Source: Fidelibacterota bacterium (GTDB lineage: Bacteria; Fidelibacterota; Marinisomatia; Marinisomatales; UBA1611). Taken from it: 64,000 nucleotides of DNA. The stretch spans positions 26,518-90,517 of the forward strand of contig JBJKZY010000024.1 in NCBI GenBank assembly GCA_045568995.1, in the 5' to 3' direction. Position numbers and translations under genes: made by a program. Positions 41,251-57,977 of this stretch are shown here, piece after piece. The notes beneath the pieces are model-generated. The model made no database searches, had not been told where the DNA came from, and saw nothing but the letters and a program-made list of their open reading frames with translations. Every line of letters starts with the position of its first letter. Position 1 is the first letter of the stretch.

Positions 41251-43041
41251 ATGAATCAGTTATTAATTTTTTTGATGATATGTTCAAATTACAGTTTTTC
41301 ACAGAATTATCGTGGAGCTGAGCTAAGGACACTGGATTCATTCCTTTATGGAAAGTTCGAAGTACGTTATAAACCAGCGCAAGGAGAGGGAATAGTTTCT
41401 TCATTTTTTACCTACAACGATGATGCTCCCAATACAGACTGGAATGAAATTGACATTGAGCTTTTGGGTAGATTCCCAAACGTGGTAGATATGAATGTAA
41501 TTACAAACACAAGTCATCTTCGTACTCATTATACTTCGTTAAATACTCATCTGGACTTTTCTGTATATGGTTTTGAATGGACACCTGAATATGTTGCTTG
41601 GTTTATAAACGGAGAAGAGGTCTATCGGCAAACGGATGATCACATAGAAGACTTGATACATCCTTCAAAAATAATGATGAATATTTGGAATCCAACTTAT
41701 GATGATTGGGTTGGTATTTGGGATGATCGTGTATTACCTAGATTTGCCTACTATGATTGGGCTCAATATTCTTCGTACACTCCAGGAAATGGAAATGTTG
41801 GTACAGATAATAATTTTACTCTTGAATGGCAGGATGATTTTGATGAATTTGATGAGGAACGATGGGAAAAAAGTCACAACCATACCTGGGGAGGGAATCA
41901 GTCTCTCTTCATCCAAGAGAATATAGTTTTTCAAAATGGAAACTTAATTCTATGTTTAACTGACGATGAAAATATAGGTTTTCAAGATCAAGAGAAACCA
42001 TATTTATTGTGGGCAAGAGCGAATGAGGATTCTATTATTATACAGTTTAGTGAAGAACTAGACACCATATCTTCCCAAATAGTTAATAACTACACCATAC
42101 CAGGCGTTTCTATCAATGAGGCGGTTTTGATGAATAATTTTAGCACGGTTCATTTAAAAGTATCTGATTTAAATGTAAATAACGATTATACTTTATATGT
42201 CCTTGGAATTCAAGACGATGCTTATCCTCCCAATACACAAGTCACACATTCTTGTCAAATAGATATGCCTCAACCACTATCATTTCCCCTAAGAATTAAC
42301 AATGCTGGTGGAGGATACAATAACCACCTGAATGATCAATTGTGGTCATCGTCGGTCGAGTATGGACATATGAATGGAAATTATCAAGTCACGGGTGAAG
42401 ATATAGGTAATACGGATCAAGATGAATTATATCGTGAGAGCTTAAATAGGCTAGTTGCTTATAAGATTAGGGTACCAAAAGGACTGTTTTCTGTAACATT
42501 AAAATTATCTGAAAATTTTTATGATGATCTGGGAGATCGTTCTTTTGATGTTTTTATTGAGGATTCCATGTGGATTTCTAATCTTGATATTTATTCATAT
42601 GTTGGAATGTTTAATGCTTTTGATACCACCTTAAGTGATATAAAAATTGAGGATGGCGTATTAGATCTATATTTTTCTGCAGTAAGATATGGAGAAGGAT
42701 ATGAGTATGCAGGTCCATTCTTAAATGGCCTTGAAATAAATTTATTAGAAGAATTAGCGACTCAATCGGATAATCCTGAAGAGTTCTCACTTTTAAGTAT
42801 TTATCCAAATCCATTTAATAATCGTCTGAAAATTCTCTTAGAGCTAACAAAGCCTGAACTTTGTAATATTTCAGTATACAATATTAAAGGTCAGTTAACT
42901 AAAACTATTTATGATGGTCTATTGCAGCAGGGAAAGAATCATCTGTTTTGGGATTCAAAAAACACTTCTAGCGGACTATATATCATCCAATCAAAAATAA
43001 ATAATAAAATAAAAAATGAAAAAACAATTTTACTTAAATAG
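41251..43041 (+). CDS. GH16 licheninase-type beta-glucanase + Ig-like domain + malectin-like domain + T9SS CTD
   Basis: N-terminal GH16 with the regular ExDxE motif NEIDIELLG (no beta-bulge), as in bacterial beta-1,3-1,4-glucanases. Malectin-like INNAGGGY...DRSFDVFIEDSMWISNLDIY. CTD YPNPFNNRLKILLEL...GLYIIQS...ILLK. Confidence 0.8.
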   Translation: MNQLLIFLMICSNYSFSQNYRGAELRTLDSFLYGKFEVRYKPAQGEGIVSSFFTYNDDAPNTDWNEIDIELLGRFPNVVDMNVITNTSHLRTHYTSLNTHLDFSVYGFEWTPEYVAWFINGEEVYRQTDDHIEDLIHPSKIMMNIWNPTYDDWVGIWDDRVLPRFAYYDWAQYSSYTPGNGNVGTDNNFTLEWQDDFDEFDEERWEKSHNHTWGGNQSLFIQENIVFQNGNLILCLTDDENIGFQDQEKPYLLWARANEDSIIIQFSEELDTISSQIVNNYTIPGVSINEAVLMNNFSTVHLKVSDLNVNNDYTLYVLGIQDDAYPPNTQVTHSCQIDMPQPLSFPLRINNAGGGYNNHLNDQLWSSSVEYGHMNGNYQVTGEDIGNTDQDELYRESLNRLVAYKIRVPKGLFSVTLKLSENFYDDLGDRSFDVFIEDSMWISNLDIYSYVGMFNAFDTTLSDIKIEDGVLDLYFSAVRYGEGYEYAGPFLNGLEINLLEELATQSDNPEEFSLLSIYPNPFNNRLKILLELTKPELCNISVYNIKGQLTKTIYDGLLQQGKNHLFWDSKNTSSGLYIIQSKINNKIKNEKTILLK

Positions 43042-44095
43042 CATTATTTGCTCTATCTCTCTTATCTCTATTTTATTTTCAAAGCCTTACAAAGGTGGAG
43101 AGTTACGAACAGAAGACACATTTAGGTACGGGCGATTTGAAGTAAGAATGAAGTCTGCTTTTGGAAATGGAGTGGTAAGTTCATTTTTCACTTACAAAGA
43201 TTTTTGGCAAGAAGGGCTAACAAATAGTTATTGGAATGAGATTGACTTTGAGTGGCTTGGTAATTATGAAGATAAAGTTCAAACAAATCTCATAATTCAA
43301 AACGAATGGGATCTACCAGAGCTTACTGCTTTAAATGTAAATCCTCATGAAGATTTTCATACCTATGCTATCGAATGGACTCCCTTAAATATCAATTTTT
43401 TTATTGACGATCAATTGATTCGATCGGTAACCAATTTTTACACAGATTCGTTGTATCATTATCAAAAGCTTATGATGAATATCTGGCAGCCGACATACGA
43501 AGATTGGGTCGGCGAGTTTGATTCGAGTATTTTACCCGTCTACGCATTCTATGATTGGGTAAAATACTACGCTTATGTTCCGAACTCAGGGAATGCGGGT
43601 ACAGATAATGATTTTATTTTAATGTGGACAGATGATTTTGATTATTACAATGCTTCTCGTTGGGACAAAGCAAATCATACTTGGGATGGGAATAATTGTG
43701 ATCTTATTTATTCTAATGTTGTTTTTGAGTATGGCTATTTAATCTTATGTTTGACTAATTCGACCAATACAGGATACAATGGAGATCCTCTTGCAGTTCA
43801 ATTAGACCCGCTACCAAAAACTATTTCGATTGGACCACCATTCCCAAATCCTTTTAATAACAATGTAGTATTTCCTGTTACCACCATGGAATCGGGCTTT
43901 GCAGAATATTCTATTTTCGATGTAAAAGGAGAAAAAATAAAGTATGAAAAAAATTTGGTTATTGATAGTGAAACCAAGATCATTTTTTGGGATGGAAAAG
44001 GAACGAATGGAGAAGAAATTTCTTCAGGAACCTATTTTTTCCAGATAAAAAATAAAAATCATTCTGAGGTTAGAAAGGTATCTTTTTTAAAGTAA
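43016..44095 (+). CDS. GH16 licheninase-type beta-glucanase + T9SS CTD
   Basis: 359 aa. YKGGELRTEDTFRYGRFEVRMK...NEIDFEWLG (ExDxE)...YAIEWTP. CTD FPNPFNNNVVFPV...GTYFFQI...VSFLK. Overlaps the upstream gene by 26 nt. Confidence 0.8.
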   Translation: MKKQFYLNSIICSISLISILFSKPYKGGELRTEDTFRYGRFEVRMKSAFGNGVVSSFFTYKDFWQEGLTNSYWNEIDFEWLGNYEDKVQTNLIIQNEWDLPELTALNVNPHEDFHTYAIEWTPLNINFFIDDQLIRSVTNFYTDSLYHYQKLMMNIWQPTYEDWVGEFDSSILPVYAFYDWVKYYAYVPNSGNAGTDNDFILMWTDDFDYYNASRWDKANHTWDGNNCDLIYSNVVFEYGYLILCLTNSTNTGYNGDPLAVQLDPLPKTISIGPPFPNPFNNNVVFPVTTMESGFAEYSIFDVKGEKIKYEKNLVIDSETKIIFWDGKGTNGEEISSGTYFFQIKNKNHSEVRKVSFLK

Positions 44096-44133
44096 TTGTT
44101 TTTTTCAAAAACATAAATAATGGAAACAAAGAC

Positions 44134-47007
44134 ATGAAATATTTTTTTGGTACTGTCGTACTTCTTTTTAGTTTTTTATTTTCTAACAATTTGCAAGTTG
44201 AGCAATATCAATTAGAAAATGGTATGACTGTAATGTTAAACGAAGATAAAGAAGCCTCCGGGGTGTATGGTGTGGTAATTGTAAAAGGAGGTGGGAAGCA
44301 GGATCCATCAGATGCTACTGGGATTGCTCATTATCTAGAGCATATGCTTTTCAAAGGTACCACAGAATTGGGTACTGTAAACTATAAAAAAGAAAAGGTA
44401 TATCTAGACAGCATTGCTTTATTATATGATAATCTTAGTTTAACAAAATCAGATGATAAAAGATTAGAGATCCAGAAAAAAATTAATGATCTCAACCTTA
44501 AAGCTTCAGAGTACGCTATTCCTAATGAATTTGATAGAATATTAGAAGGAATGGGTGGAACAGGTATCAATGCATTTACAAGCAACGATGTAATAGCTTA
44601 TTTTAATCAGTTTCCTCCTCATCAGATAAACAAGTGGCTTGAGGTCAATAGCCACAGGTTTATAAATCCTGTTTTTAGATTATTCCAATCTGAATTAGAG
44701 GTTGTCTATGAGGAGAAAAACAGAGCAATGGACAATCCTTTTAGAAAACTAATTGAAGAATATTTTGAACATTTTTGGAAAAAGCATCCCTATGGGCAGC
44801 AAACAGTTCTTGGTACTGTAGATCACCTTAAAAATCCATCTCTAACCAAAATGAGAGAATATTATGATAAATATTATATAGCCAATAACATGTATCTCTT
44901 GCTAGCAGGTAATTTTCAATCAATAAACATAAAACCTCAGATCGAAAATACTTTTGGAAGGTTACAGTCAGGACCCGCTCCAAAATTTGTAGATGTAGAT
45001 GAAGTGTCTTTTAACGGAAGGGAAGTAGTAAAGAACAGGCTCACTCCAGTACGTTTTGGTATCCTCGGATACAGAGTGCCACCGAATAGTCATGAGGATT
45101 CAGAAAAAATTCAGGTAATTAAAAATTTATTAAACAATCGATCTTCTACAGGATTATTAGATAGGTTAAGTATAGAAAATAAGTTGACCTCTTGTTCTGC
45201 GGTAGATGGTTTCGGAGGATCTGATCATGGATCTATGGCATTTATTTTTATACCCAAGCTAGTATTTCAAACTTTTCGCGGAGCAGAGAACCAGGTTTTA
45301 AAACAAATTGAAAAAATTAAGAATGGTGAGTTTAGTGAGGAGTTTTTGGAGTCTGTTAAGCTTTCTATGATTCAAGATCATGAGACAGGGCTTGAGAATG
45401 TAAGCAATCGTCTTTCGTATGCTCTAGAGGTAGTGAATTACAATAAGACTTGGGAAGGTATTTTTAATTATCCTGAGGTTATTGAATCAGTAACAAAAAA
45501 GGACGTTATCCAGATCGCAAATAAATATTTTAATGACGACTATCTAGTATATCAGTCCAGAATGGGGTTCCCTAAAAAGGCTAAATTAGATAAACCTCCA
45601 TTTAAAGCAATTAAGGCGAAAAATTCGGAAAAAGTATCTGAATATCGAAGTAAACTAGAAAACCTATCAGAAGACCCCATTAAATTTGATTTTATAAATC
45701 TTGAAAGAGATATGCAGTATGGGGAGATAAAGAATAATTATCATTTATATCATAACATGAATCCAAAGAATTCAATTTTCACTATGAAAGTTGAATACGG
45801 TATAGGCACTAAGGAAGATCCAACATTACAATATGCGGCTGAATTGGGTAATATGATAGGTAATGAAAAGTATTCGTTTAATGTTCTCAAAGAAGAGCTT
45901 CAAAAAATTGGAGCTACAATTAATTTTTATAGTTCTGGAGATTATTTTGGATTAGACATTAAAGGATTTGATAAAAACTTTGACAAAACGATGAATATGG
46001 CTAGCGAGTTTTTACAAACAATGAAAGTTAGAAAAGAGGATAAAAAGAAATTAAAAAAACTGATTCAGGGCAGTACAATTGAAAGGATGATCGAAGGAAG
46101 AGATGCATCAACGAAAGGAAATGCTTTAAGGGATTATGCTTTGTGGGGTCAGAATTCTAATTGGTTAAAACGATCGACGATTAAAGAAGTCAAAAAGATG
46201 GATACAGAATTTTTGTTAGATAAAATTTCTACAGCCATGACATATGAGACGACTATATTTTTCACAGGAACATTAGATTTTACGGAAGTAAAAAATTCTG
46301 TAAAGAAGAATTTTATTTTTAATAATCAATTAAAAAAATCGTCTTCTCCCATTGTGTATGAGCAACAATTAAAAGACAAGAATACTATATATTTTTACAA
46401 CGATAAAAAAGCCGTTCAGAGTCAGATTCATGTTCTTATACCAGGTTCTAAAATGGAATTGGATGAAAGACTTACTTCCAGAACTTTTAACAAATATTTT
46501 GGAAGTGGGATGAGCGCGCTAGTTTTTCAAGAGATAAGGGAATTTAGATCCCTTGCATATTCCGCATACGGTGTGTATCAGGTTCCGTGGTATTTAGATG
46601 GTCAAGGATACTTTAGAGGTTACATGGGTACTCAGGCAGATAAAACCGTTAATGCTATAAAAGCTTATCTTGACCTTTTGAAAAAAATGCCCGAGAAACC
46701 GTTAAGGATGGAAGGAATTAAATCTGGATTGCTACAATCACTTGTTACCTCAAAGCCTAATTTCAGATCTTTAGCTCGTACTGGAAGAAATTGGAAATTG
46801 CAGGGGTATGATGAGAATCCTAATGTTTTATATAAAGACAACTATGAATCTGTTGATTTTAAAACTGTTGTTAACTTTTATGAGGAAAACCTAAAAGAGA
46901 AGCCGTATACTATCGCTATTGTAGGCAATCGAGAAAAAATAGATATGCAAAAGCTTGCTGATTTCGGGGAATTAATTGAAGTAGATAAAAAAGATATTTT
47001 TAATTAA
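44134..47007 (+). CDS. M16 (pitrilysin/insulinase) family zinc peptidase, two-unit type
   Basis: 957 aa with a signal peptide. Inverted zinc motif HYLEHMLFKGT (HxxEH) with a downstream Glu region (ELEVVYEEKNR). The second half is an M16-like inactive unit. Confidence 0.85.
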   Translation: MKYFFGTVVLLFSFLFSNNLQVEQYQLENGMTVMLNEDKEASGVYGVVIVKGGGKQDPSDATGIAHYLEHMLFKGTTELGTVNYKKEKVYLDSIALLYDNLSLTKSDDKRLEIQKKINDLNLKASEYAIPNEFDRILEGMGGTGINAFTSNDVIAYFNQFPPHQINKWLEVNSHRFINPVFRLFQSELEVVYEEKNRAMDNPFRKLIEEYFEHFWKKHPYGQQTVLGTVDHLKNPSLTKMREYYDKYYIANNMYLLLAGNFQSINIKPQIENTFGRLQSGPAPKFVDVDEVSFNGREVVKNRLTPVRFGILGYRVPPNSHEDSEKIQVIKNLLNNRSSTGLLDRLSIENKLTSCSAVDGFGGSDHGSMAFIFIPKLVFQTFRGAENQVLKQIEKIKNGEFSEEFLESVKLSMIQDHETGLENVSNRLSYALEVVNYNKTWEGIFNYPEVIESVTKKDVIQIANKYFNDDYLVYQSRMGFPKKAKLDKPPFKAIKAKNSEKVSEYRSKLENLSEDPIKFDFINLERDMQYGEIKNNYHLYHNMNPKNSIFTMKVEYGIGTKEDPTLQYAAELGNMIGNEKYSFNVLKEELQKIGATINFYSSGDYFGLDIKGFDKNFDKTMNMASEFLQTMKVRKEDKKKLKKLIQGSTIERMIEGRDASTKGNALRDYALWGQNSNWLKRSTIKEVKKMDTEFLLDKISTAMTYETTIFFTGTLDFTEVKNSVKKNFIFNNQLKKSSSPIVYEQQLKDKNTIYFYNDKKAVQSQIHVLIPGSKMELDERLTSRTFNKYFGSGMSALVFQEIREFRSLAYSAYGVYQVPWYLDGQGYFRGYMGTQADKTVNAIKAYLDLLKKMPEKPLRMEGIKSGLLQSLVTSKPNFRSLARTGRNWKLQGYDENPNVLYKDNYESVDFKTVVNFYEENLKEKPYTIAIVGNREKIDMQKLADFGELIEVDKKDIFN

Positions 47008-48215
47008 TGAAATTCTATTTTTTAGTTTTCACATTCTTTAGTTTCATTTTATGCTCTTGTAGTGAGGAAGGGGATAAAGTGCCATCCGGTGATCAAATTT
47101 CTACTTTTTCTTCAAATTGGGAATTGTTGTGGTCAGATGAATTTGATGGAGCAGATCTTGATATCTCTAAGTGGAATAAACTGAGTTGGAGACCTGGGTG
47201 GGTCAATAATGAGCTCCAGGCATACACTGAAAGGGACACTAACATATTTTTGGAGAATGGCTATTTAGTTTTGCAAGGCTTGATAGATCCAGGTTTTTCT
47301 GGAACTGATTATAATGGGAATAATTATAATGCGGATTACACTTCTGGGAGAGTAAATACGGATGGTAAATTTTCAACAACGCACGGGAGATTTGATATAC
47401 GAGCTAAACTTCCGAAAGGTAAGGGGTCATGGCCAGCGATCTGGATGCTGGGAGAAAGTATAAGCTCAATTGGATGGCCTGATTGTGGTGAAATAGATAT
47501 TATGGAGCATGTTGGATACGATGAGGGTATGATTCATGGTTCTATACATACAGAAGAATATAATCATATGTATAATACTCAAAGGTCAGGCTCAAAGTAT
47601 ATTGAAGATGTCACCAATACATTTCATGTGTATTCTTTAGAGTGGAGTCCATTTTATCTACGTTATTTAATCGATGATGAGCCTTTTTTCTTCGTGTACA
47701 ACGACAGTAAGGGAGATAATAGCAAGTGGCCATTTGATGATCCACATTATATTATTTTAAACCTCGCTATTGGAGGCGATTGGGGAGGCGTACAAGGTAT
47801 TTCTACGAGTGACTTCCCCATGCGGATGATGGTTGATTATGTTAGAGTATTTAAACAATCAAATTCTTATAATAATATTGACGTAACATTTAGGGTGAAT
47901 ATGAAAAATGAAAACGTGAACAGTACTGGAGTCTGGCTTTCCGGAGGGAATTTAGGCTCTGGGCAACCCGGTGGAATTCAAATGGAACAATCATCGGATC
48001 AAAATATTTGGCAAATTACTTTGACACTCCCTCCTAATTCTAATTATACTTACAAATATAGGAACGGTTATTTCCCTAATTCTTGGCAAGGTGGTTGGGA
48101 AGTTCTAGATAATAGCTGTGGTGTAGGAGATCATAATGATAGATCACTTTCGATAAGTGATACTGACACTTTGCTTGCACCCATTTGTTTTGGAGATTGT
48201 GTAACATGCGAATAA
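47007..48215 (+). CDS. GH16 laminarinase-type endo-beta-1,3-glucanase lipoprotein with a C-terminal CBM20/48-like beta-sandwich
   Basis: Lipobox ILCSCS. WELLWSDEFDG...GWVNNELQAYT...GEIDIMEHVG (beta-bulge motif)...DYVRVF. C-terminal IDVTFRVNM...WQITLTLPPNSNYTYKYRNG. Confidence 0.85.
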   Translation: MKFYFLVFTFFSFILCSCSEEGDKVPSGDQISTFSSNWELLWSDEFDGADLDISKWNKLSWRPGWVNNELQAYTERDTNIFLENGYLVLQGLIDPGFSGTDYNGNNYNADYTSGRVNTDGKFSTTHGRFDIRAKLPKGKGSWPAIWMLGESISSIGWPDCGEIDIMEHVGYDEGMIHGSIHTEEYNHMYNTQRSGSKYIEDVTNTFHVYSLEWSPFYLRYLIDDEPFFFVYNDSKGDNSKWPFDDPHYIILNLAIGGDWGGVQGISTSDFPMRMMVDYVRVFKQSNSYNNIDVTFRVNMKNENVNSTGVWLSGGNLGSGQPGGIQMEQSSDQNIWQITLTLPPNSNYTYKYRNGYFPNSWQGGWEVLDNSCGVGDHNDRSLSISDTDTLLAPICFGDCVTCE

Positions 48216-50179
48216 TAATTATTTCAATATTAGTTTCTGGTCTTACTTTTGCTCAGGGGTTCCTGCATAATATGAATGGGGAAGTTGTTGATGGAAACGG
48301 AGAACCCATTTTACTACGAGGATTTGGGCTTGGTGGTTGGCTTGTTCCAGAGGGGTACATGTTGCATAATCAAGCTTGGATTGAGGGGTTTGAATCTCCA
48401 ACAGATATAGAAAATCACGTAATGGATTTGATTGGACAAGATGCTGCTACAGATTTTTGGAATTTATACAGAGCAAATTATGTTGCTCAAGCAGATATAG
48501 ATAAAATTGCAGAATGGGGTTTTAATCATATTAGAGTTCCATTCCATTACAAACAATTTTATGATTCTACTGGAACAGAGACACCGATTGGATATGGTAT
48601 TGTTGATGAACTTATTTCCTGGTGTGAGCCACATAACATATATATTATATTGGACATGCACTGTGCGCCTGGAGCTCAGAATGGAGGTCCAATTAGTGAT
48701 AGTGACGGAATCGCTCGTTTATGGTTAGAAGACAGCTATAAAGAACTTACTATTCAAATTTGGAAAGAAATTGCTACTTATTATTCAGATCATACTCTCA
48801 TTGCAGGATATGATTTGATTAATGAGCCCGTTTTGCCAGGTGGAGTTACTCTTCAGGAATTCAAACAATTATATGTAGACATAACTGAGGCAATAAGAGA
48901 AGTGGATAACAATCATCTCATTTGGATAGAAGGAAATTGGTACGGAACGGATTTTTCTGGTCTTACCCCTCCATGGGATGATAATATGGGCTATTCATTC
49001 CATAAATATTGGGGGCAGACTGATATTTCAACCATCCAATCCTATATAAGTATGCGTAATACATATGGAGTCCCTTTATGGATGGGAGAATCAGGAGAGA
49101 ACTCTAATCATTGGTACTATGAAGTGTTTAAGTTGCTTGAAGAAAATAATATTGGATGGAATTTTTGGACGCATAAAAAAGTAGATAAGATAACAAGTCC
49201 ATATTCTGCTTTAGTAACCCCTCAATATCAAACGATAATTAATTATTTAACAGGTTCGATTAGTCAGCCAGATCCTAATATTGCAGGGATGGGTCTTACA
49301 AGTTTTGCAAATAGTTTAAAAATAGAAAATTGTATTACACGACCAGGAGTGATTGCTTCCCTAACTGACCCAGAATACGGTGAAATTTCAAAACCTTTTA
49401 AAAGCCATTCTATTCCTGGAACTATTGCAGCTGCATATTATGACATAGGCGCGAGAGGTCTTTCATACACGGATAGTGATTATTGGAATGATGGTGATGG
49501 TGGTTACAATGATGGGTGGGTTGGAAGAAATGATGGAGTCGACTTAGAAGGTAGCGATGATGATCCAGATATTCCTTTTACGGTTGGCTATACTGAAGCG
49601 GGTGAATGGTTAGGTTATACCATTCAAGAGGTAACTACGGGAACATATGATGTGAGTTTTCGTATATCTGCACCAGGTTCAGATGGACTATTCTACGCTC
49701 AATTAAGCGGCCAAAATTTAGGAGTGGTTGAAGTACCATCCACTGGAGGTTGGTATAATTGGGAAGATACCCCTGCTCAAACTATTGCGATCGAGGAAGG
49801 TGAAAAATTTTTAAAAATTCAGATTGTTCAATCTGGCTTCAATATTCAAAGCATTACTTTTAGTCCTGTGTTGAGTAATGAGGATGAAAAAATAAACCCA
49901 AATAGTTTTACACTTGGGACGCCATACCCAAATCCATTTAATCCATTTGTGAAAATGGAGCTTTCATTAGAAAATAGTGGTAAATACCAGATTAATATTC
50001 ACAACATTAAAGGTGAGTTAATTGATAACTGGGATGTGAACTTTACGCGTAAAGGGAGTCACATTATACAATGGGACGCAACGAACCATGATGGGAAAGT
50101 AGTGCCGAGCGGATTATTTTTTATAAGCGTTAGAAATCAGAATGAAAGTAAACAGAAAAAAGTAATACTCCTTAGGTAA
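48206..50179 (+). CDS. GH5 beta-glucanase/glucosidase + CBM6-like domain + T9SS CTD
   Basis: I prefer the start MRIIIISILV (ATG at 48206) to the track start at 48185. FGLGGWLVPEGYML, IRVPFHY, ILDMHCAPGAQNGG, LINEPV and MGESGEN. CBM6-like IPGTIAAAYYD...GEWLGYTIQ...YDVSFRISAP. CTD YPNPFNPFVKMELSL...GLFFISV...VILLR. Confidence 0.75.
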   Translation: MRIIIISILVSGLTFAQGFLHNMNGEVVDGNGEPILLRGFGLGGWLVPEGYMLHNQAWIEGFESPTDIENHVMDLIGQDAATDFWNLYRANYVAQADIDKIAEWGFNHIRVPFHYKQFYDSTGTETPIGYGIVDELISWCEPHNIYIILDMHCAPGAQNGGPISDSDGIARLWLEDSYKELTIQIWKEIATYYSDHTLIAGYDLINEPVLPGGVTLQEFKQLYVDITEAIREVDNNHLIWIEGNWYGTDFSGLTPPWDDNMGYSFHKYWGQTDISTIQSYISMRNTYGVPLWMGESGENSNHWYYEVFKLLEENNIGWNFWTHKKVDKITSPYSALVTPQYQTIINYLTGSISQPDPNIAGMGLTSFANSLKIENCITRPGVIASLTDPEYGEISKPFKSHSIPGTIAAAYYDIGARGLSYTDSDYWNDGDGGYNDGWVGRNDGVDLEGSDDDPDIPFTVGYTEAGEWLGYTIQEVTTGTYDVSFRISAPGSDGLFYAQLSGQNLGVVEVPSTGGWYNWEDTPAQTIAIEEGEKFLKIQIVQSGFNIQSITFSPVLSNEDEKINPNSFTLGTPYPNPFNPFVKMELSLENSGKYQINIHNIKGELIDNWDVNFTRKGSHIIQWDATNHDGKVVPSGLFFISVRNQNESKQKKVILLR

Positions 50180-50287
50180 TTATTTATGAAGTATTGCTTT
50201 TATTTTAAAAGTATAATAATTTGAAACAAATTCTATTTAATTACATTTAACATTTAAAAAAATAAAGTTAAAAATAAGGTATATAAT

Positions 50288-52024
50288 ATGAGATTATTTT
50301 TTCAATTTTCTGCTTTAGGACTACTGATCTTAATTGCTAGTTGTTCCAAGGACCTTGGGCCCACAGGATTATCCGATGCCGAGATTATTCAAATGATTCA
50401 AAATTCGGATTTAGAAGATATCTCAAAAAGTGATCTTCCCTCTGAATCTCAAGACGTTGTAGATAACGATTACTTTGATTATATGAACGTAGCAACCAGG
50501 CAAGCATCAGGTCTTGGATATGAGGTAGCACTTGCCGGGAGAGGATATAGAGTAGGATCCAGACATGAGGTGTATTTTAACCTAAGGGGTAGAAAATTAG
50601 ATCCAAATGACTGGGGCGATAAACGTGGTTGGGATAAAGATGGATACGGTAGAGAATTTGGTAATAAAGAAGATTGGAGATGTTTTGATTTAGTGTTTCC
50701 TCTAACCTATAATATGCCAGATGGATCTTCTATTACGGTTGAAAGTGATGAGGAAAGTAATTGGAGTGAAATTAAAGATTGGTATGAAGAAAATCCTGAA
50801 TTGGAAGAGAAACCTGAGTTGCAATTTCCGGTTGTAATATTCTACGAAGATGAGTCCGTAACACTTTCTAACTTTGAAGAGCTTCGTGGTGCATATTCTA
50901 GATGTGAACCCAGAAGAGTTAGAGATGATCACAAAAGAAGTCGACAATGTTTTACTCTAGTTTATCCTTTGAGCTATACAATGCCCGATGGTTCAGTGAT
51001 GGAAGTTACTGGAGATGACGAGGAAGGCTGGTCTGCATTAAAAGCTTGGTATGAAGTAAATACTGGATACGAAGAAGTAATGCCAAATCTAAATTACCCT
51101 GTAGATGTTGTATTTGAAGCAGAAGAAGGTGAAGATTTTGTTACTATCAACTCTGAAGAAGAAATGCAGGAAATGAAGGAAGAGTGTCAGGATGATTGGG
51201 GATTTAGAGAGTGCTTTACTTTAGTTTATCCTTTGAGCTATACAATGCCTGATGGTTCAGTGATGGAAGTTACTGGAGATGATGAGGATGGTTGGACTAC
51301 ATTAAAAAATTGGTATGAAGAAAACCCTGGTTATGAAGAAGTAATGCCAAATCTAAATTACCCTGTTGATATTGTATTTGAAACGGAAGAAGGTGAAAAT
51401 GTTGTTACCGTCAACTCTGAAGAGGAAATGGAATTGGCAAAACGTGATTGTAGAGAAGATTGGGAAGAAGAAGGTGAAGGAGAGGAAGAAGGTGAAGATA
51501 ATGACAGGGAATGTTTTGAGATGGTACTGCCAGTAACATTTGTGATGCCAGATGGTTCTTTACTTACTGTTTCAGAGGATAGTGACTGGTTAAATGTTAG
51601 ACTCTGGTATGAAGAAAATGGTGATGTAGAAGAGGAGCCAAGTTATCAGTTTCCAGTTGATATTGTATATGAAACAGAGGATGGAAACAATACGGTTACT
51701 ATTAATAGTCAAGATGAGTTGGAATCGGCAGAGGAAGAATGCTGGGAAGAAGAAGGTGAAGATAATGACAGGGAATGTTTTGAGATGGTACTGCCAATAA
51801 CATTTGTGATGCCAGATGGCTCTTTACTTACTGTTTCAGAGGAAAATGACTGGCTAAATGTTAGACTCTGGTATGAAGAAAACGGTGATGTAGAAGAGGA
51901 GCCAAGTTATCAGTTCCCCGTCAATATTTCATATGAAACAGAGGGTGGTTATAATACAGTTACTATTCAAAATCAAGAAGAGATGGAAGCGGCAGAAGAA
52001 GAATGTTGGGAGGATGAAGGATAA
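50288..52024 (+). CDS. Acidic lipoprotein with five Cys-bounded ~88-100-aa repeats (unknown family) and a PepSY-like N-terminal segment
   Basis: 578 aa with lipobox LIASCS. N-terminal GLGYEVALAGRGYRVGSRHEVYFNLRGRKL is PepSY-like. It is followed by five modules of the form CF.(L/M)V.P(L/V)(S/T)(Y/F).MPDGS...W..(L/I)K.WYEEN...(F/Y)PV...E.E.G...VT(I/V)....E(E/L)M....EC. Confidence 0.6.
   Translation: MRLFFQFSALGLLILIASCSKDLGPTGLSDAEIIQMIQNSDLEDISKSDLPSESQDVVDNDYFDYMNVATRQASGLGYEVALAGRGYRVGSRHEVYFNLRGRKLDPNDWGDKRGWDKDGYGREFGNKEDWRCFDLVFPLTYNMPDGSSITVESDEESNWSEIKDWYEENPELEEKPELQFPVVIFYEDESVTLSNFEELRGAYSRCEPRRVRDDHKRSRQCFTLVYPLSYTMPDGSVMEVTGDDEEGWSALKAWYEVNTGYEEVMPNLNYPVDVVFEAEEGEDFVTINSEEEMQEMKEECQDDWGFRECFTLVYPLSYTMPDGSVMEVTGDDEDGWTTLKNWYEENPGYEEVMPNLNYPVDIVFETEEGENVVTVNSEEEMELAKRDCREDWEEEGEGEEEGEDNDRECFEMVLPVTFVMPDGSLLTVSEDSDWLNVRLWYEENGDVEEEPSYQFPVDIVYETEDGNNTVTINSQDELESAEEECWEEEGEDNDRECFEMVLPITFVMPDGSLLTVSEENDWLNVRLWYEENGDVEEEPSYQFPVNISYETEGGYNTVTIQNQEEMEAAEEECWEDEG
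50681..52021 (+). repeat. Intragenic tandem repeat array, 5 units (starts at 50681, 50948, 51212, 51512, 51776)
   Basis: Each unit starts on the conserved Cys codon. The periods are 267, 264, 300 and 264 nt. Units 2/3 and units 4/5 are near-identical at DNA level. Confidence 0.85.
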
Positions 52025-52062
52025 ATCCTTTTTCTAGAGATTTTATTTAAAAAATATTTTTA

Positions 52063-52095
52063 ATAGCCTTCTTTTATTAGTAGGCTATTTTTTTA
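52063..52095. terminator. Hairpin terminator between convergent genes
   Basis: ATAGCCT (52063-52069) pairs with AGGCTAT (52082-52088) across a 12-nt loop and is followed by a T-run. Confidence 0.55.
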
Positions 52096-52110: not shown

Positions 52111-52755
52111 TTATTTTTTCATTTCTTCTTTCATTACTTTTTTTGACGCAGCCCAGGAGCAGATCTCACATTGTTCTAAATTATGGCTTCTTGCTGGGCA
52201 AAATTCTCTTCCGAAAAAAATAATTTGCAAGTGCAATTTATTCCATAATTCCTTAGGCCAAATTTTTTTCAAATCCCGTTCTGTCATTTCAACATTTTTC
52301 CCTTTTGTAAGACCCCATCTTTTTGCAAGCCTGTGAATATGAGTATCTACAGGGAAAGCAGGGAATCCGTACCATTGCGACATGACGACACTTGCTGTTT
52401 TATGTCCAACACCGGCTAATCCTTCTAGAAACTTCCATTCTCCGCGTAGACCTCCACTATCAATTATTTGTTCTGCCATTTTTTTTAAATTTTTAGCTTT
52501 CGTTGGAGCAAGACCAATCTCTTTTATAATACTTTGAATCATTTTCACTTCCAGTAATGCCATTTTATTTGGAGTGTCTGCGTATTGAAAAAGATTGGGA
52601 GTTACTTGATTCACTTTTTTATCTGTAGTTTGGGCAGATAACATAACTGCTACTAGTAATGTGTATGCACTGTTATGATCTAATGGTATAGGAGTTTCAG
52701 GATATAGTCTCTCTAAAATATTTGCGATCTTTTTTCCTTTTTCATCCCTTTTCAT
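52111..52755 (-). CDS. nth: Endonuclease III (DNA glycosylase/AP lyase)
   Basis: 214 aa. HhH-GPD elements LAGVGHKTASVVM and VDTHIHRLAKRWGL. C-terminal Cys cluster (CPAR...CEIC). Confidence 0.85.
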   Translation of the reverse strand: MKRDEKGKKIANILERLYPETPIPLDHNSAYTLLVAVMLSAQTTDKKVNQVTPNLFQYADTPNKMALLEVKMIQSIIKEIGLAPTKAKNLKKMAEQIIDSGGLRGEWKFLEGLAGVGHKTASVVMSQWYGFPAFPVDTHIHRLAKRWGLTKGKNVEMTERDLKKIWPKELWNKLHLQIIFFGREFCPARSHNLEQCEICSWAASKKVMKEEMKK

Positions 52756-52803: not shown

Positions 52804-53271
52804 ATGAAAGTACTTTTTTTATTCTTCTCTTTATTAATAGGTTCCCAGGACTCCACAATTATTAGAAAATATGGAGTATTTGATCATGCAACAATAGAAC
52901 GAATTGAGAATTCAGTAAGAAATGGTGAAATGACTAGAAGAGAAGCAGATAGTCGCTATGTATATTATTTACAAAACAATCTTAACCGATTAAAAAAGAA
53001 AGAAAGTGTAATAAAAAACAACTTCCAAGAAGTTGGGATTTATGATTTGGATAAGATAAGAAATGAAATGCTTATTATGGATTTTCCAGCAAAGAAAATA
53101 GAGCCGTCTTTAAGTGGAATGTTGCGAGTTATACATGCGATGAAAAAAGGGAAAAATAAATATGAGATTAGTCCTAGACTACAGTCTTATTTCCAGGAAA
53201 GATTAGAATTAAGAAGTTATCAAATAGATTATATTATGAAAAAATCTGAAAAAATAGCTCAAACTAATTAA
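52804..53271 (+). CDS. Hypothetical secreted protein
   Basis: 155-aa ORF with a signal-like N-terminus. Its stop overlaps the start of the downstream TonB-dependent receptor (TAATG). No recognisable motif. Confidence 0.4.
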   Translation: MKVLFLFFSLLIGSQDSTIIRKYGVFDHATIERIENSVRNGEMTRREADSRYVYYLQNNLNRLKKKESVIKNNFQEVGIYDLDKIRNEMLIMDFPAKKIEPSLSGMLRVIHAMKKGKNKYEISPRLQSYFQERLELRSYQIDYIMKKSEKIAQTN

Positions 53272-55712
53272 TGCAATATCTTCTTTTTTCTATATTTTTT
53301 TTATCAGGTCTACTCCTTTCTCAAACTAATACTGCTAGTATAAATGGATTTGTTCGGGATAACGCAAGTGGAGAACCAATATCATATGCTAATGTTTTTT
53401 TAAGCAATTCGTCCATTGGAGCAGCCTCAAATAGTGATGGATATTTTGTAATGTCCGGAATTCCTTTAGGGCTATACGAAATAAATGCTACAATGATAGG
53501 CTATGCTGTATTTAAAGAACAAGTTGATTTGTCATCTGCAGAAGCGGTTAGATTAGAAATAAGGTTAAAAGAAGAGGCGATTAAAGGAACAGAGGTTTTA
53601 GTAACAGCAGAACGGCAGAAATTCCAAAGATCTATGGAAAGTAGTCAGATAGCACTAGACCTAAGAGAAATCAATTCTGCTCCTGCTTTTGTAGAACCAG
53701 ATGTATTTCGCACTCTGCAGATGCTTCCGGGTGTACAAACAACCAGTGATTTCTCAAGTGCATTATATGTTCGAGGAAGTACTCCAGATCAAAATTTAAT
53801 TATGCTAGATGGAATTGCTATTTATAACCCCTATCATCTAGGAGGAATCTTTTCCACATTTAACACAGATGCGATTAAAGAAGCAGATTTTCATGCAGGA
53901 GGATTTCCTGCTAGGTATGGTGGAAGGATGGGAGCCATACTTAATGTAATTAATAGGGAAGGGAATACAGAAAAGATAATGGGTTCAGCTAACTTATCGC
54001 TTATTTCTAGTAAGGCTCTCATTGAAGGTCCTATTCCAAAGTGGAAAGATATGAAAGGATCGTGGATGATTTCAGGAAGGAGAACATACATTGATAAGGT
54101 TGTTGATGCATTAAATCTTCCAAGTGGTTCGAAGAATACAGATGGCTCAGATGTACCTCTAGAGTTTCCTTATTATTTTTATGATTATCAGATCAAAGCT
54201 AATATCGATTTTAATCAGGATCATCGTCTGACTTTTACTAGGTTTTATGGAGATGATGTTCTTGACTTTTCCTATGAAGATCCTTCTGAAACTATAAGTA
54301 ATGAGAATGTAACCATTCAGCAAGAATCTAAGTTTGGCTTGGATTGGCCATGGGGGAATCAAACGAATGGCCTTACTTGGAGATGGATTGTTTCTCCTAA
54401 AATAATAGCAAAAACATTTTTATCTAATAGCCGTTATCGTTTTGATTTTGATCTTTCCTTTCAAAACAGAGATACATATACATATGTAGATTCAACTGTA
54501 ATCAATTTCACAAATTTTAATTGGAATATATATGATATTATTAAAGACCAAACATTGGAGTCTGAAGTACAGTATAAACATTCAAATGATCATGAAATTA
54601 CAAGTGGGTTTCAGATCAAGAAGATAAAATTTGATTTAGGTATTAGATATGATTTAGGTACTCAAGATACCTCTTTCACTTGGAATCCTCTTTCTTTAAA
54701 AAACACTACTCAGGAAATTTCCTTCTTTTTACAGGACCGGTGGGAAGTATCAGATAATCTCAAAATACGAGGAGGCCTTCGTTTCACAGATTATAATTTG
54801 CATAAGAAAATTTATGTAGATCCAAGAGTTGGGATAAAATACCATTTTTCTGACGATATTGCCCTGAAAGCAAATTGGGGTCTATATCATCAATTTTTAA
54901 CTACTGCAAACAATCAAGACGAGAACTTGAGACTTGTTGAGCTTTGGTTAGGAATACCAAAAGAAAAACCAGCTAGTGTTTCAGAACACGTTATTGGTGG
55001 TGTAGAATATATGTCACCGCGAAATATTTTCTATCGAATTGAATTATATCAAAAAACGTTTGAAAATTTGCTCACTCTTAAGCAAGATAATGCAAATGAA
55101 TTTGAAGGCACATCTCAAAATTCAACAATCAATGAATTTTGGGATACAAGAGGAAATAGCAATGGCCTTGAATTATTGGTAAAAAAATCATCAGGGAAAT
55201 TCAATGGATGGATTGGATATACTTTATCAGAAACTAAATATTTTACGGAAGCAAGCGGATGGCATAATCCCAATTTTGATAGGACTCATACCGTCAATAT
55301 TGTTGGGAATTATGAACTAACTGCAGATCTAGAATTGAGTGCTGCTTTGACACAATCAAGCGGGAACCCGTACACAAAAATTTTAGGTCGAGTATATGAT
55401 TGGGAACAAAGTCTATATAACAATTCTTATTGGTATCCAATTGATAGCTATCTGGTTGGAGAAAAGAATACAGAAAGATACGATGATTATTTTAGGGTTG
55501 ATATTGGCATGACTCGTAAGGGCGGTAATCTTTTTGGTTTAGAGTATGATACCTATTGGCAAATTATGAATCTCACAAGACATGTGAATATTTTAAGTTA
55601 CCGTTACCGAACCAAAACAGATCCTCTTACGGGAAATCAACTTGGCGTACAGCGTCAGCCGATACCAATGTTTCCTCTAATCTTTACTTTTGGAGTTAAA
55701 TTTGAGTTTTAA
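53271..55712 (+). CDS. TonB-dependent receptor with a CarboxypepD_reg-like N-terminal domain
   Basis: 813 aa. ASINGFVRDNASGEPISYANVFL...GYFVMSGIPLGLYEINATMIGY. Plug (...LQMLPGVQTTSD...YVRGSTPDQNLIMLDGIAIYNPYH). Barrel ends ...FGVKFEF. Confidence 0.8.
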   Translation: MQYLLFSIFFLSGLLLSQTNTASINGFVRDNASGEPISYANVFLSNSSIGAASNSDGYFVMSGIPLGLYEINATMIGYAVFKEQVDLSSAEAVRLEIRLKEEAIKGTEVLVTAERQKFQRSMESSQIALDLREINSAPAFVEPDVFRTLQMLPGVQTTSDFSSALYVRGSTPDQNLIMLDGIAIYNPYHLGGIFSTFNTDAIKEADFHAGGFPARYGGRMGAILNVINREGNTEKIMGSANLSLISSKALIEGPIPKWKDMKGSWMISGRRTYIDKVVDALNLPSGSKNTDGSDVPLEFPYYFYDYQIKANIDFNQDHRLTFTRFYGDDVLDFSYEDPSETISNENVTIQQESKFGLDWPWGNQTNGLTWRWIVSPKIIAKTFLSNSRYRFDFDLSFQNRDTYTYVDSTVINFTNFNWNIYDIIKDQTLESEVQYKHSNDHEITSGFQIKKIKFDLGIRYDLGTQDTSFTWNPLSLKNTTQEISFFLQDRWEVSDNLKIRGGLRFTDYNLHKKIYVDPRVGIKYHFSDDIALKANWGLYHQFLTTANNQDENLRLVELWLGIPKEKPASVSEHVIGGVEYMSPRNIFYRIELYQKTFENLLTLKQDNANEFEGTSQNSTINEFWDTRGNSNGLELLVKKSSGKFNGWIGYTLSETKYFTEASGWHNPNFDRTHTVNIVGNYELTADLELSAALTQSSGNPYTKILGRVYDWEQSLYNNSYWYPIDSYLVGEKNTERYDDYFRVDIGMTRKGGNLFGLEYDTYWQIMNLTRHVNILSYRYRTKTDPLTGNQLGVQRQPIPMFPLIFTFGVKFEF

Positions 55713-56784
55713 TTCTTTTTTAAAAACTATTTTTCTTTCAATTCTACTCATATTTTTCAGTTGTTTAGGAGAAAATTCATGGGAGGATCTAGAATCAGAA
55801 TATGACCATGTGCTAAATGTATTTGGGCTTGTAAGTTTAGATTCACTTCAGCCAAGTTACATTGGTCTTTACAGCACAACAGATTTAGATGAAATTTCCC
55901 AGATATTTGTAGGTGTAGATACATTGGGCTGGTGTGACTGTGATGATGATGAATGTGGTTTGGATTGTGATACCAAAGAAATTGAGGGGTACTGGATTTT
56001 AGATTCCTTGTTTGAACCGGCTGCTTTGATAAAAAATGCATCGGTTGCGATCACAGATGATAATGGCACTAATTATGATTTTTCTTATGTAGATAACATC
56101 TCCTTGGTAGATACAGTCTACTTTGACACCACATTTGTTATTTACGGAACAACTATTGAGTGGGATACGACAATTTTTGATACAAATAATTTCAGAATAA
56201 ATCTTTATATAGATAGCTCAGGTACTTTTAATCCTGAGCCAATGACTACTTACAATTTAAATATTAATGCACCTGGATATGACCCAGTGACGGGATCTTT
56301 AACAACTCCCAATTCTCCCACTATTGATTCGTTAACTCAACTCGGGAATAATATTGATACAGTAATTATTAATGAACCGTTTAATATTTATTGGGATCTT
56401 TTAGAAGAGGGAAAGGGAATGGTAACCGGCGAAGTTATTTTGGGAAATTGGTGGGATGATTCTTTGGGAAATGATTGGTGTGGAGGATATTTTGATCCTT
56501 TTGTTGTTGATCTTTCTGATAACGGATTAACCCCTCACACTGTTTATCCTTGGATATGTTCAGAAAATTTGAATCAAGGGGATGAAACTAGAGACTACCT
56601 TATACGACTTACTGCTATGGATGAAAACTATTATGATTATTTTGTAGTAGGAGAATCAGGAGAATATTCGAACGCACTACTCAATTACCCTACCACGAAA
56701 GGTAGATCCGTGGGAATTCAAGGAGGGTTTGGTTTTTTTGGCTCTATAGCATCGGACAGAATGTTACTAAAAATAACTAGATAA
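55690..56784 (+). CDS. Lipoprotein, possibly DUF4249-like partner of the upstream TonB-dependent receptor
   Basis: 364 aa with a non-ATG (TTG) start in the track and lipobox IFFSCLG. The position directly after a CarboxypepD_reg-type TBDR is the usual DUF4249 context. The family call is by context only. Confidence 0.35.
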   Translation: MELNLSFNSFLKTIFLSILLIFFSCLGENSWEDLESEYDHVLNVFGLVSLDSLQPSYIGLYSTTDLDEISQIFVGVDTLGWCDCDDDECGLDCDTKEIEGYWILDSLFEPAALIKNASVAITDDNGTNYDFSYVDNISLVDTVYFDTTFVIYGTTIEWDTTIFDTNNFRINLYIDSSGTFNPEPMTTYNLNINAPGYDPVTGSLTTPNSPTIDSLTQLGNNIDTVIINEPFNIYWDLLEEGKGMVTGEVILGNWWDDSLGNDWCGGYFDPFVVDLSDNGLTPHTVYPWICSENLNQGDETRDYLIRLTAMDENYYDYFVVGESGEYSNALLNYPTTKGRSVGIQGGFGFFGSIASDRMLLKITR

Positions 56785-56801: not shown

Positions 56802-57977
56802 ATGTTATTTCGTTTACTAATTATTGTTAATCTTTTATCTTCCTATCTTTTAATGGCAGATTGTTCTGATCTCACTTATGACGAATGTATATATTGGTCA
56901 GGATTCTGTGAGTGGAACGAAGATACTGGATTATGCCAAGATCTTGCTGGAGGTGGTGATGGTGGAGATATTGAATTTGGTCCCTATCAGTTTGATTACT
57001 TAACAGAAGCAGATAGCATTAGAAATAGTGATTTGTATAACGGAACTTTACTTTATTATCCGTTAGATGCTAACCCTCCATATGCGAGTATTGTACTTAT
57101 TGATGCATTTGGTGATGAGTTTGGTTTACAAAGTTGGGCCCAGTATTTTTCTTCTTATGGCTTCATAGCGATGACAATAGGAAATTTTGATAGAACTGTA
57201 CGAGATGGTGATTCTGAATGGGATTATGCAGATAGAGCGTTGGGGTTACTTGATGCCATTGAGACTATAAAGCAGGAAAATGTAAGAGACCTTTCTCCCT
57301 TATTTGAAAAGGTAGATACAAGTCGCTTTGCAGTTTCTGGCTACTCCACTAGTGGAGGCGGTGCTCACACGGCTGTTACGATGGATTCAACTTTAAAAAC
57401 GGCAATTCTTCTAAATCCTGCAGTAGCATTTTTGGATTCTATAAATTGCTCAGCCGAATCAAACTACTATTGTCTTATCGAAGAACATTTGGATCATGAT
57501 GTTCCTGTTTTAATTTTTGCTGGTGAAAATGAATATGATGAACTTGTTAGTCCAGACGATCCAACTTATTCAAATATGTGGGCATTACCTCAATATGAAT
57601 ATGTACCAGAGACAACAGATAAAACATATTTTGAATCTGCTGGTGAAGGGCATGGTTCATCAGTTTTCCCATTTGGTGATGTCGCAGGTTATTCACTAGC
57701 CTGGCTCCGATATTTTTTATTGGATGAGGAATTATATTGCGATTTTCTAGTTGAAGCGCCTCAAAGCACCTCACAGTTTTTCACCACACTGCAATGTACC
57801 AATACCATTTCATATGACATTAATAATGATGGGCAGATTAATAATGAAGATTTAATTACAGCTGTTGTATCTATAGTTAACAATAGCCAAACAGAAAATA
57901 GCTTGGATTTAAACTTTGACTCCTATGTAGATATTTTTGATTTACTTCTACTTTCTGACTATCTACTAGATATGTAG
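56802..57977 (+). CDS. Secreted alpha/beta hydrolase (cutinase/PET-hydrolase/dienelactone-hydrolase-like) with an N-terminal 4-Cys motif and a C-terminal dockerin-like domain
   Basis: The nucleophile-elbow-like VSGYSTSGGGAH resembles the GxSxGGGG of cutinase/PETase-type enzymes. N-terminal CSDLTYDECIYWSGFCEWNEDTGLC. The C-terminus has two EF-hand-like loops, DINNDGQINNED and DLNFDSYVDIFD. Confidence 0.55.
   Translation: MLFRLLIIVNLLSSYLLMADCSDLTYDECIYWSGFCEWNEDTGLCQDLAGGGDGGDIEFGPYQFDYLTEADSIRNSDLYNGTLLYYPLDANPPYASIVLIDAFGDEFGLQSWAQYFSSYGFIAMTIGNFDRTVRDGDSEWDYADRALGLLDAIETIKQENVRDLSPLFEKVDTSRFAVSGYSTSGGGAHTAVTMDSTLKTAILLNPAVAFLDSINCSAESNYYCLIEEHLDHDVPVLIFAGENEYDELVSPDDPTYSNMWALPQYEYVPETTDKTYFESAGEGHGSSVFPFGDVAGYSLAWLRYFLLDEELYCDFLVEAPQSTSQFFTTLQCTNTISYDINNDGQINNEDLITAVVSIVNNSQTENSLDLNFDSYVDIFDLLLLSDYLLDM

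Follow-up and report, generated by a model that had tools for sequence, protein, structure and literature searches.

Several described protein systems resemble parts of a tandem-repeat lipoprotein that is encoded at positions 50288-52024 of a 64,000-nucleotide stretch of DNA from a Fidelibacterota (Marinimicrobia) bacterium (GenBank assembly GCA_045568995.1, contig JBJKZY010000024.1, positions 26,518 to 90,517 of the forward strand; this whole stretch is referred to below as the window). PB1 (PF00564) is a cytoplasmic scaffold domain of eukaryotes whose OPCA motif docks onto a basic patch of another PB1 domain, calsequestrin is a high-capacity acidic cation-binding protein, and surface lipoproteins of the SusD, BtuG and HmuY types are partners of TonB-dependent transporters. 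The surface glycan-binding protein (SGBP) Cf-SGBP, which belongs to a laminarin locus, carries four carbohydrate-binding module (CBM) repeats, and as many as eight occur in its relatives (bioRxiv 10.1101/2023.09.07.556657). Binding and inhibition of partner proteins have been proposed for the PepSY_like/DUF2874 family (PF11396; BVU2987 = 3DUE, BT0923 = 3DB7 and BDI_1975 = 3U1W), for which no co-occurring domains were noted (PMC2954215), and the word "calcium" in the titles of two DUF2874 PDB entries is unsupported by the same source. The PepSY-like proteins BT0922/0923 are induced 3.7-5-fold under iron limitation in Bacteroides (PMC10434189).

We found that the window gene encodes an exported, N-terminally lipid-anchored protein in which a PepSY-like head beside the anchor is followed by five autonomous, hyper-acidic modules of about 80 residues on short linkers predicted to be disordered. 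The module defines a new domain family that at present bears the wrong label PB1; its general kind, bacterial surface lipoproteins with repeats, is known already. The fusion of a PepSY-like domain to an acidic repeat array is a new architecture. As in the SGBPs of laminarin loci, an N-terminal non-repeat domain precedes recently duplicated tandem modules of variable number, and in one clade the lipoprotein gene also adjoins genes of glycoside hydrolase (GH) family 16 and a TonB-dependent transporter gene; however, the SGBP modules are beta-sandwiches unrelated in sequence to this alpha/beta 80-mer, and the window protein is hyper-acidic and its family is not confined to glycan loci. As in the SusD, BtuG and HmuY types, an outer-membrane lipoprotein is repeatedly encoded near CarboxypepD_reg transporters, twice directly upstream of a set of extracytoplasmic function (ECF) sigma factor, FecR and transporter genes, but there is no homology, the association is statistical and weak, and the window transporter already has a DUF4249 partner gene. 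Calsequestrin is similar in its high Asp and Glu content and low isoelectric point (pI) over folded domains and acidic linkers, without any relation in sequence or fold; the window protein, by contrast, is bacterial, extracytoplasmic, lipid-anchored and predicted to be disulfide-stapled.

Architecture of the lipoprotein

The coding sequence is a 578-residue open reading frame (ORF) with more than 651 homologues (50288-52024, stop codon included, taken from the ORF list; all features are on the plus strand unless otherwise indicated). Its initial annotation as a lipoprotein gene was correct: the protein begins with MRLFFQFSALGLLILIAS|C19 and continues CSKD, an N-terminus that is kept in relatives, and its signal peptide ends in the lipobox pattern by which we recognised lipoproteins ([LVI][ASTVI][GAS]C). 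The signal peptide and lipobox L-I-A-S|C occupy 50288-50344, as read from the sequence, and Cys19, ahead of S-K-D-L, is predicted to become the lipidated N-terminal residue.

A profile hidden Markov model (HMM) of the module identified exactly five full-length copies (domain E 1e-32 to 1e-36) and no further copy in the window, and reproduced exactly the starts at 50681, 50948, 51212, 51512 and 51776 of the five motif-bearing Cys-to-Cys units that had been noted initially. Module 1 (50681-50905, residues 132-206, E 5.9e-32) is of type A, with a short second hairpin; module 2 (50948-51187, residues 221-300, E 1.9e-34) and its recent paralogue module 3 (51212-51451, residues 309-388, E 8.5e-36) are of type B; and module 4 (51512-51742, residues 409-485, E 1.9e-33) and its recent paralogue module 5 (51776-52006, residues 497-573, E 1.6e-32) are of type C. 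Alignment of the five units revealed 26 invariant columns, including C1, F2, P7, MPDGS, W, WYE.N, P-V, VT and the terminal C. The linkers had been described as extremely rich in Glu and Asp, which holds for linker 3-4 (REDWEEEGEGEEEGEDNDRE; 51452-51511), an acidic, low-complexity segment whose length varies between strains in EEEGEG units, and for the acidic linker 4-5 (51743-51775), but not for linker 1-2 (EPRRVRDDHKRSRQ; 50906-50947), which is basic and predicted to be disordered, nor for linker 2-3, which is short. The linker that joins the N-terminal domain to module 1 (DKRGWDKDGYGREFGNKEDWR; 50618-50680) is of mixed charge, rich in Trp, Tyr and Gly, and likewise predicted to be disordered; in the AlphaFold2 (AF2) model the predicted local distance difference test score (pLDDT) fell below 50 at model residues 94-111.

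Tandem Repeats Finder reported 264-nt arrays at 50951-51430 (score 769) and 51485-52020 (score 883). Units 2 and 3 are 86% identical in DNA and 77% in protein, and units 4 and 5 are 89% and 84% identical, respectively, so that to call these pairs near-identical in DNA was an overstatement. They are clearly the youngest duplicates of the array, and the suggestion that the array grew by duplication is borne out; relatives carry 2 to 9 copies. All five modules recur in a 98% identical protein from an independent assembly (P0001), which differs by an EEEGEG indel of six residues in a linker. This concordance rules out an assembly artefact as the source of the five-module form, an outcome that the initial annotation had named as fatal to its own reading. 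A further, near-identical variant with three modules (P0003) lacks exactly module 2; its source is a 1.3-kb contig that may be a collapsed or truncated assembly. As P0001 agrees with the window, and divergent relatives on contigs of 300 kb-1 Mb have four or five modules, the five-module array is real and its copy number is naturally variable. Within the two acidic linkers (51452-51511 and 51743-51775) the near-identical strains represented by P0001 and P0003 differ by whole EEEGEG hexapeptides, and these length differences look like slippage inside the linker DNA.

Fold and classification of the module

The module had no whole-model match in Pfam or NCBIfam, no sequence relative in the PDB and no match in a Foldseek search, in agreement with the initial failure to place it in a known family; the NCBIfam search gave two chance matches only, far below the cut-off. 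The Pfam PB1 profile reached a total of 50 bits, which passes the Pfam cut-off, but this total is the sum of four partial matches of 18-24 bits per module to profile positions 39-69, where the module segment Y-E-T-E-D-G-x-x-V-T-I-x-S-x-E-E-L aligns. The matching part is an acidic OPCA hairpin-helix of about 30 residues out of some 84 profile positions. PB1 and the module also have a common element order (beta-beta-alpha-beta-beta-alpha), but PB1 is a beta-grasp with a fifth strand between strands 1 and 3, unlike the direct pairing of strands 1 and 3 in the module. The AF2 module model (pLDDT approximately 90; 89.9 for module 2) had no fifth strand, and its template modelling (TM) score in Foldseek against the PB1 structures 4ic7_B and 2o2v_A was 0.23. 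We therefore rejected PB1 identity, as only the hairpin-helix part of the profile matches and the fold differs. Precomputed public labels of the homologues P0001-P0120 include PB1, Mitoc_L55 and DUF1521, and some distant members are labelled Rib or RibLong; all of these labels derive from brief, incomplete matches to the acidic hairpin and mislead.

In a mean-field coupling analysis of 933 unique modules both hairpins were recovered, and each helix proved to be coupled to the hairpin of its own half. Couplings 2-53, 4-51, 5-52 and 6-50 pair strand 1 (residues 2-6) with strand 3 (residues 50-54) in antiparallel fashion, and from this co-evolution we infer a sheet order b2-b1-b3-b4 with a pseudo-two-fold axis and one helix packed per hairpin, an order that excludes a beta-grasp core. 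The two halves of the module align with each other in hhalign (probability 90.6%, E 1.3e-6), and the module is thus an internal duplication of a hairpin-helix unit. Two other descriptions were tried and discarded: a circularly permuted ferredoxin-like fold, in which the disulfide would mark the permutation site, would need pairing of strands 2 and 4, whereas the couplings give the order 2-1-3-4, and kinship of the module with the N-terminal PepSY-like unit received an hhalign probability of 0.6%.

The two Cys residues form the top coupled pair of the analysis (z 10.7), and both are present in 916 modules, both are absent from 24 and only one is found in 8. This both-or-neither pattern and the top coupling support the intramodule disulfide that had been thought probable, which would link the first and last residues and close each module. 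One subgroup of the family (P0125, P0189, P0192, P0161, P0234 and P0257) has lost both Cys residues from every module, as in the Fulvitalea axinellae protein, and this joint loss indicates that the fold has no strict need for the disulfide. Other conserved positions are D14 (Asp or Glu in 90% of modules), columns 70-71 (78%), W34 (87%) and F/Y49, which is also kept.

Distribution of the family

A search of 5.8 billion proteins returned the homologues counted above, none of which is named; they are approximately 390, 480 or 575 residues long, corresponding to three, four or five modules, and a protein of n modules has 2n+1 Cys residues. When the module profile was run against 1.84 billion cluster representatives, it matched 1,539 at E <= 1e-3, of which 964 reached E <= 1e-10; the former figure is a lower bound on the family, counted in 50%-identity clusters, and a single 90% cluster can contain as many as 446 sequences. 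Members are found in Marinimicrobia and Bacteroidota, two phyla of the Fibrobacteres-Chlorobi-Bacteroidetes (FCB) group, and almost every one begins with a signal peptide and a lipobox Cys. The survey of copy number in relatives that the initial annotation proposed gave two to nine modules per protein among the cluster representatives and three, four or five in close relatives. The closest genome match, in the single-cell genome Candidatus Marinimicrobia AG-457-F09 (locus L001), is 67% identical with the same gene order and three modules. A plasmid-borne member in the cultivable species Fulvitalea axinellae (Bacteroidota; DSM 100852, WP_338395715.1) is annotated as "hypothetical protein" or "Lipoprotein", and a literature search for an acidic Marinimicrobia lipoprotein found nothing relevant.

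The N-terminal domain

Residues 26-110 (50363-50617; family profile A4, E 7e-31) were modelled by AF2 as a helix, a strand, a helix and three strands with pLDDT 70-85. Foldseek matched this domain to 3due with probability 0.99 and a root mean square deviation of 2.8 A over 65 columns, but at E 0.17, with further matches to 4ipb, 4hbr, 4k61, 3db7 and 3u1w. The N-terminal family profile matched 3u1w and 3db7 among PDB sequences at E 2e-3, and PF11396 was matched by 6 of 55 family N-termini, with a best E of 2.7e-5; homologue P0200 scored 22.2 bits against a cut-off of 28.3, and the window N-terminus itself had no match to PF11396 at E <= 10. These three independent signals, each weak, are consistent with the N-terminal 85 or so residues being a divergent relative of PepSY_like/DUF2874 (BLIP-like) domains below the Pfam threshold. 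With these domains the modelled N-terminus appears to share a helix packed with an antiparallel sheet, together with an LP...YEV...YF..G motif, and like the window protein the described PepSY_like/DUF2874 proteins are exported proteins of the FCB group. In contrast to the two to four units that are usual in the described proteins, the window protein has one, fused to a different repeat array.

Acidic composition and cellular location

The mature protein is 27% Asp plus Glu and 6% Lys plus Arg, corresponding to approximately 151 acidic and 36 basic residues. Modules across the family contain 21-27% acidic and 1-7% basic residues, compared with 12.8% and 8.8% in the other ORFs of the window, and the module pI lies below 6 in 144 of 149 distant representatives. 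Acidity is a selected trait of the whole family, which makes a polyanionic or cation-binding role reasonable.

The protein had been placed in the periplasm or at the surface. That it is exported and lipid-anchored was upheld, and features of its relatives shift the likely location towards the surface or the extracellular side. Three relatives (P0121, P0123 and P0194) combine the same modules with an ordinary signal peptide and a C-terminal type IX sorting domain (PF18962, E 1e-10 to 1e-13), which shows that the module has an extracytoplasmic function; in these three proteins it acts at the cell surface or beyond it. PF18962 was not found at the C-terminus of the window protein (...ECWEDEG). 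In distant lipoprotein members the residues that follow the Cys are Lys at +3 in 49%, Asp or Glu at +4 in 56% and Asp or Glu at +5 in 45%, resembling C-x-K-(D/E)2, an experimentally defined surface-export signal of Bacteroidota (PMC5080379). Judged from these sequence features, the window protein is likely to be exposed at the surface.

Genomic context

The gene is preceded by an AT-rich intergenic stretch (50100-50287; GC content 0.20 at 50100-50299) and followed by a terminator-like hairpin (52062-52094), both of which had been noted initially and were confirmed. The hairpin was recognised from sequence and fold energy and consists of AATAGCCT, a 12-nt loop and AGGCTATT, forming an 8-bp stem with seven T residues after it; the 84-nt stretch that holds it has a fold energy of -14.1 kcal/mol (z -1.8). 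It was overlooked by a simple terminator scan because its loop exceeds 8 nt, and as it is situated between two convergent genes it could serve both. Upstream, a sigma-70-like match at 50247-50275 is weak, and promoter-like matches are at chance level (7 against 6.8 expected).

Next to the lipoprotein gene on the upstream side lies a beta-glucan-type cluster (41251-50179) comprising GH16-malectin, GH16, an M16 peptidase, GH16 with a CBM-like tail and GH5-CBM6, several of which have type IX tails; as three cluster proteins end in PF18962, this Marinimicrobia genome appears to export glycanases by type IX-style secretion. On the downstream side are an endonuclease III gene on the opposite strand, a 155-residue ORF, and genes for a CarboxypepD_reg TonB-dependent transporter and a DUF4249 protein. 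The order GH cluster, lipoprotein gene, transporter and DUF4249 recurs in 7-8 non-redundant Marinimicrobia loci of one clade (L001, L007, L067, L037, L060, L082 and L089, whose family proteins are less than 70% identical to one another), whereas the other 20 contexts differ and consist mostly of housekeeping genes such as those for HSP90, AcrB, PanB, exonuclease VII and GAPDH. The glycan-island neighbourhood described at the outset therefore stands for this one clade and not for the heterogeneous contexts elsewhere, and a glycan-island-specific role for the whole family was rejected.

The 155-residue ORF (52804-53271) encodes a secreted, basic (pI 9.7), helical protein that may be a partner of the lipoprotein. 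It had no relative in Pfam or the PDB, its family has a pI of 8.9-10.1, and homologues occur in 25 of 82 related loci, in most cases as the next gene after that of the lipoprotein and in the same orientation. PADLOC defence-system models matched neither this protein nor the lipoprotein. The endonuclease III (HhH-GPD) gene (52111-52755, minus strand) occupies the same place in L001; it is missing at that position in L007, L067, L037 and L082 and looks like a local insertion or rearrangement. The transporter and DUF4249 genes (53271-56784) are overlapping ORFs, and the pair is kept in L007, L067, L037 and L089. Across the family, TonB-dependent transporters account for 11 of 142 genes within three positions on either side compared with 1 of 84 at greater distances (Fisher p 0.035, without correction for common descent). 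In two unrelated lineages the family gene is followed by ECF sigma factor, FecR and CarboxypepD_reg transporter genes (L083, 7311-12330; Fulvitalea axinellae pFA4, L091, 7968-13619). Beyond the DUF4249 gene the window encodes a PETase-like protein of dienelactone hydrolase fold with a dockerin-like C-terminus (56802-57977), and in the distant relative L002 (9793-12132) the family gene is immediately followed by two PETase-like paralogues.

Possible functions

The reading that we tentatively prefer, as possible though still short of even odds, is that the lipoprotein serves as a polyanionic scaffold at the surface that captures cations or basic ligands or partners. The protein would project from the outside of the outer membrane as a long polyanionic stalk, its length tuned by unequal recombination between modules, and would carry Mg2+/Ca2+ in seawater. 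Such an electrostatic scaffold could concentrate cations or basic ligands and partners at the cell surface, probably in cooperation with the co-encoded basic 155-residue protein, or by feeding the neighbouring TonB-dependent transporter, or both, while the PepSY-like domain might make a protein-protein contact at the membrane. The cation binding suggested in the initial annotation is compatible with the data, and metal binding by the lipoprotein would be plausible on the basis of its composition. A fuller version appears improbable to us, in which the module is an undescribed pseudo-dimeric hairpin-helix fold (2-1-3-4, disulfide-circularised) whose arrays form a surface device that concentrates cations, trace metals or basic ligands, helped by the basic protein, with cargo passed to TonB-dependent transporters and with ECF sigma/FecR control in some lineages.

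Several observations weigh against a capture scaffold. No Pfam or NCBIfam match at E <= 10 was found to Ca2+- or metal-binding families or motifs (EF-hand, RTX, TSP3, Calx-beta, cadherin), and the searches gave neither homology to any Ca2+- or metal-binding family nor a structural site; high acidity may also serve solubility or charge repulsion instead of binding. The post-Cys motif of the window protein, C-S-K-D-L, has Lys at +3 and one acidic residue, a partial match to a signal that was defined in Bacteroidota and not in Marinimicrobia. Many family members sit amid housekeeping genes with no conserved partner, the opposite-strand endonuclease III gene separates the 155-residue protein gene from the lipoprotein gene in the window, and the transporter association is weak, uncorrected for ancestry and concerns transporters that are common in these genomes.

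It is unlikely, in our estimation, that the lipoprotein is instead a specific protein-binding regulator, inhibitor or anchor, in which the head and the acidic hairpins hold, mask or neutralise a basic protein at the envelope; the target might be the 155-residue protein or a secreted hydrolase, or else a cationic toxin, peptide or lysozyme that arrives from outside. The proposal that the PepSY/DUF2874/BLIP superfamily binds and inhibits partners (PMC2954215) speaks for such a role, although an inhibitory function of PepSY-like domains is conjecture, and so does the resemblance of the second module half to the acidic OPCA hairpin-helix of PB1, although that similarity is local and compositional. 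The recurrent pairing of the gene with one for a basic secreted protein is a further point in its favour, but the basic-protein gene is missing from most loci outside Marinimicrobia, where a single weak and non-adjacent homologue was found (L003/L004, E 4.7e-9), and a copy number of two to nine is easier to reconcile with avidity or length than with 1:1 inhibition.

We consider it distinctly unlikely that the protein serves the beta-glucan (laminarin-type) cluster as a glycan binder at the surface, with modules that would be a new CBM and hold polysaccharide near the secreted GH16/GH5 enzymes and the transporter. The gene does lie between GH16/GH16/GH5-CBM6 and the transporter with DUF4249 in the 7-8 syntenic loci, but outside that clade its neighbours are heterogeneous housekeeping genes. 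A lipoprotein with an N-terminal domain and 2-9 recent tandem repeats parallels Cf-SGBP, but the small alpha/beta fold differs from the usual beta-sandwich, no CBM match was obtained, and the module was fused to no glycoside hydrolase or known CBM in the 269 family proteins examined. Although the modules retain aromatic residues (W34 and F/Y49), these suit a hydrophobic core because the couplings tie them to strands, and a net charge near -115 would be unusual for binding a neutral glucan.

A passive coat or spacer, that is, a length-variable negative brush that repels particles, phages, grazers or cells or projects the N-terminal domain, with diversifying selection driving copy number, would fit the rapid change between three, four and five modules among proteins 60-98% identical, the three modules at the same genomic position in the 67% identical single-cell genome L001, the linkers polymorphic by EEEGEG units and the stand-alone gene with its own upstream region and hairpin, but it too is distinctly unlikely: a module conserved across phyla with its turns and acidic positions kept argues for a constrained function, and the PepSY-like domain adjoins the membrane anchor and is not at the tip.

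Envelope proteins mostly lack annotation in Marinimicrobia (SAR406) and marine Bacteroidota, two groups that rank among the ocean's most abundant heterotrophs. To define this family as a domain would correct a frequent "PB1" label and make a common surface component easier to study. Should the modules be only a charged spacer, the family would be a routine addition to the bacterial surface repeats; if the polyanion does capture cations or basic ligands for TonB-dependent transporters, it would represent a new type of accessory protein in marine nutrient or trace-metal uptake.

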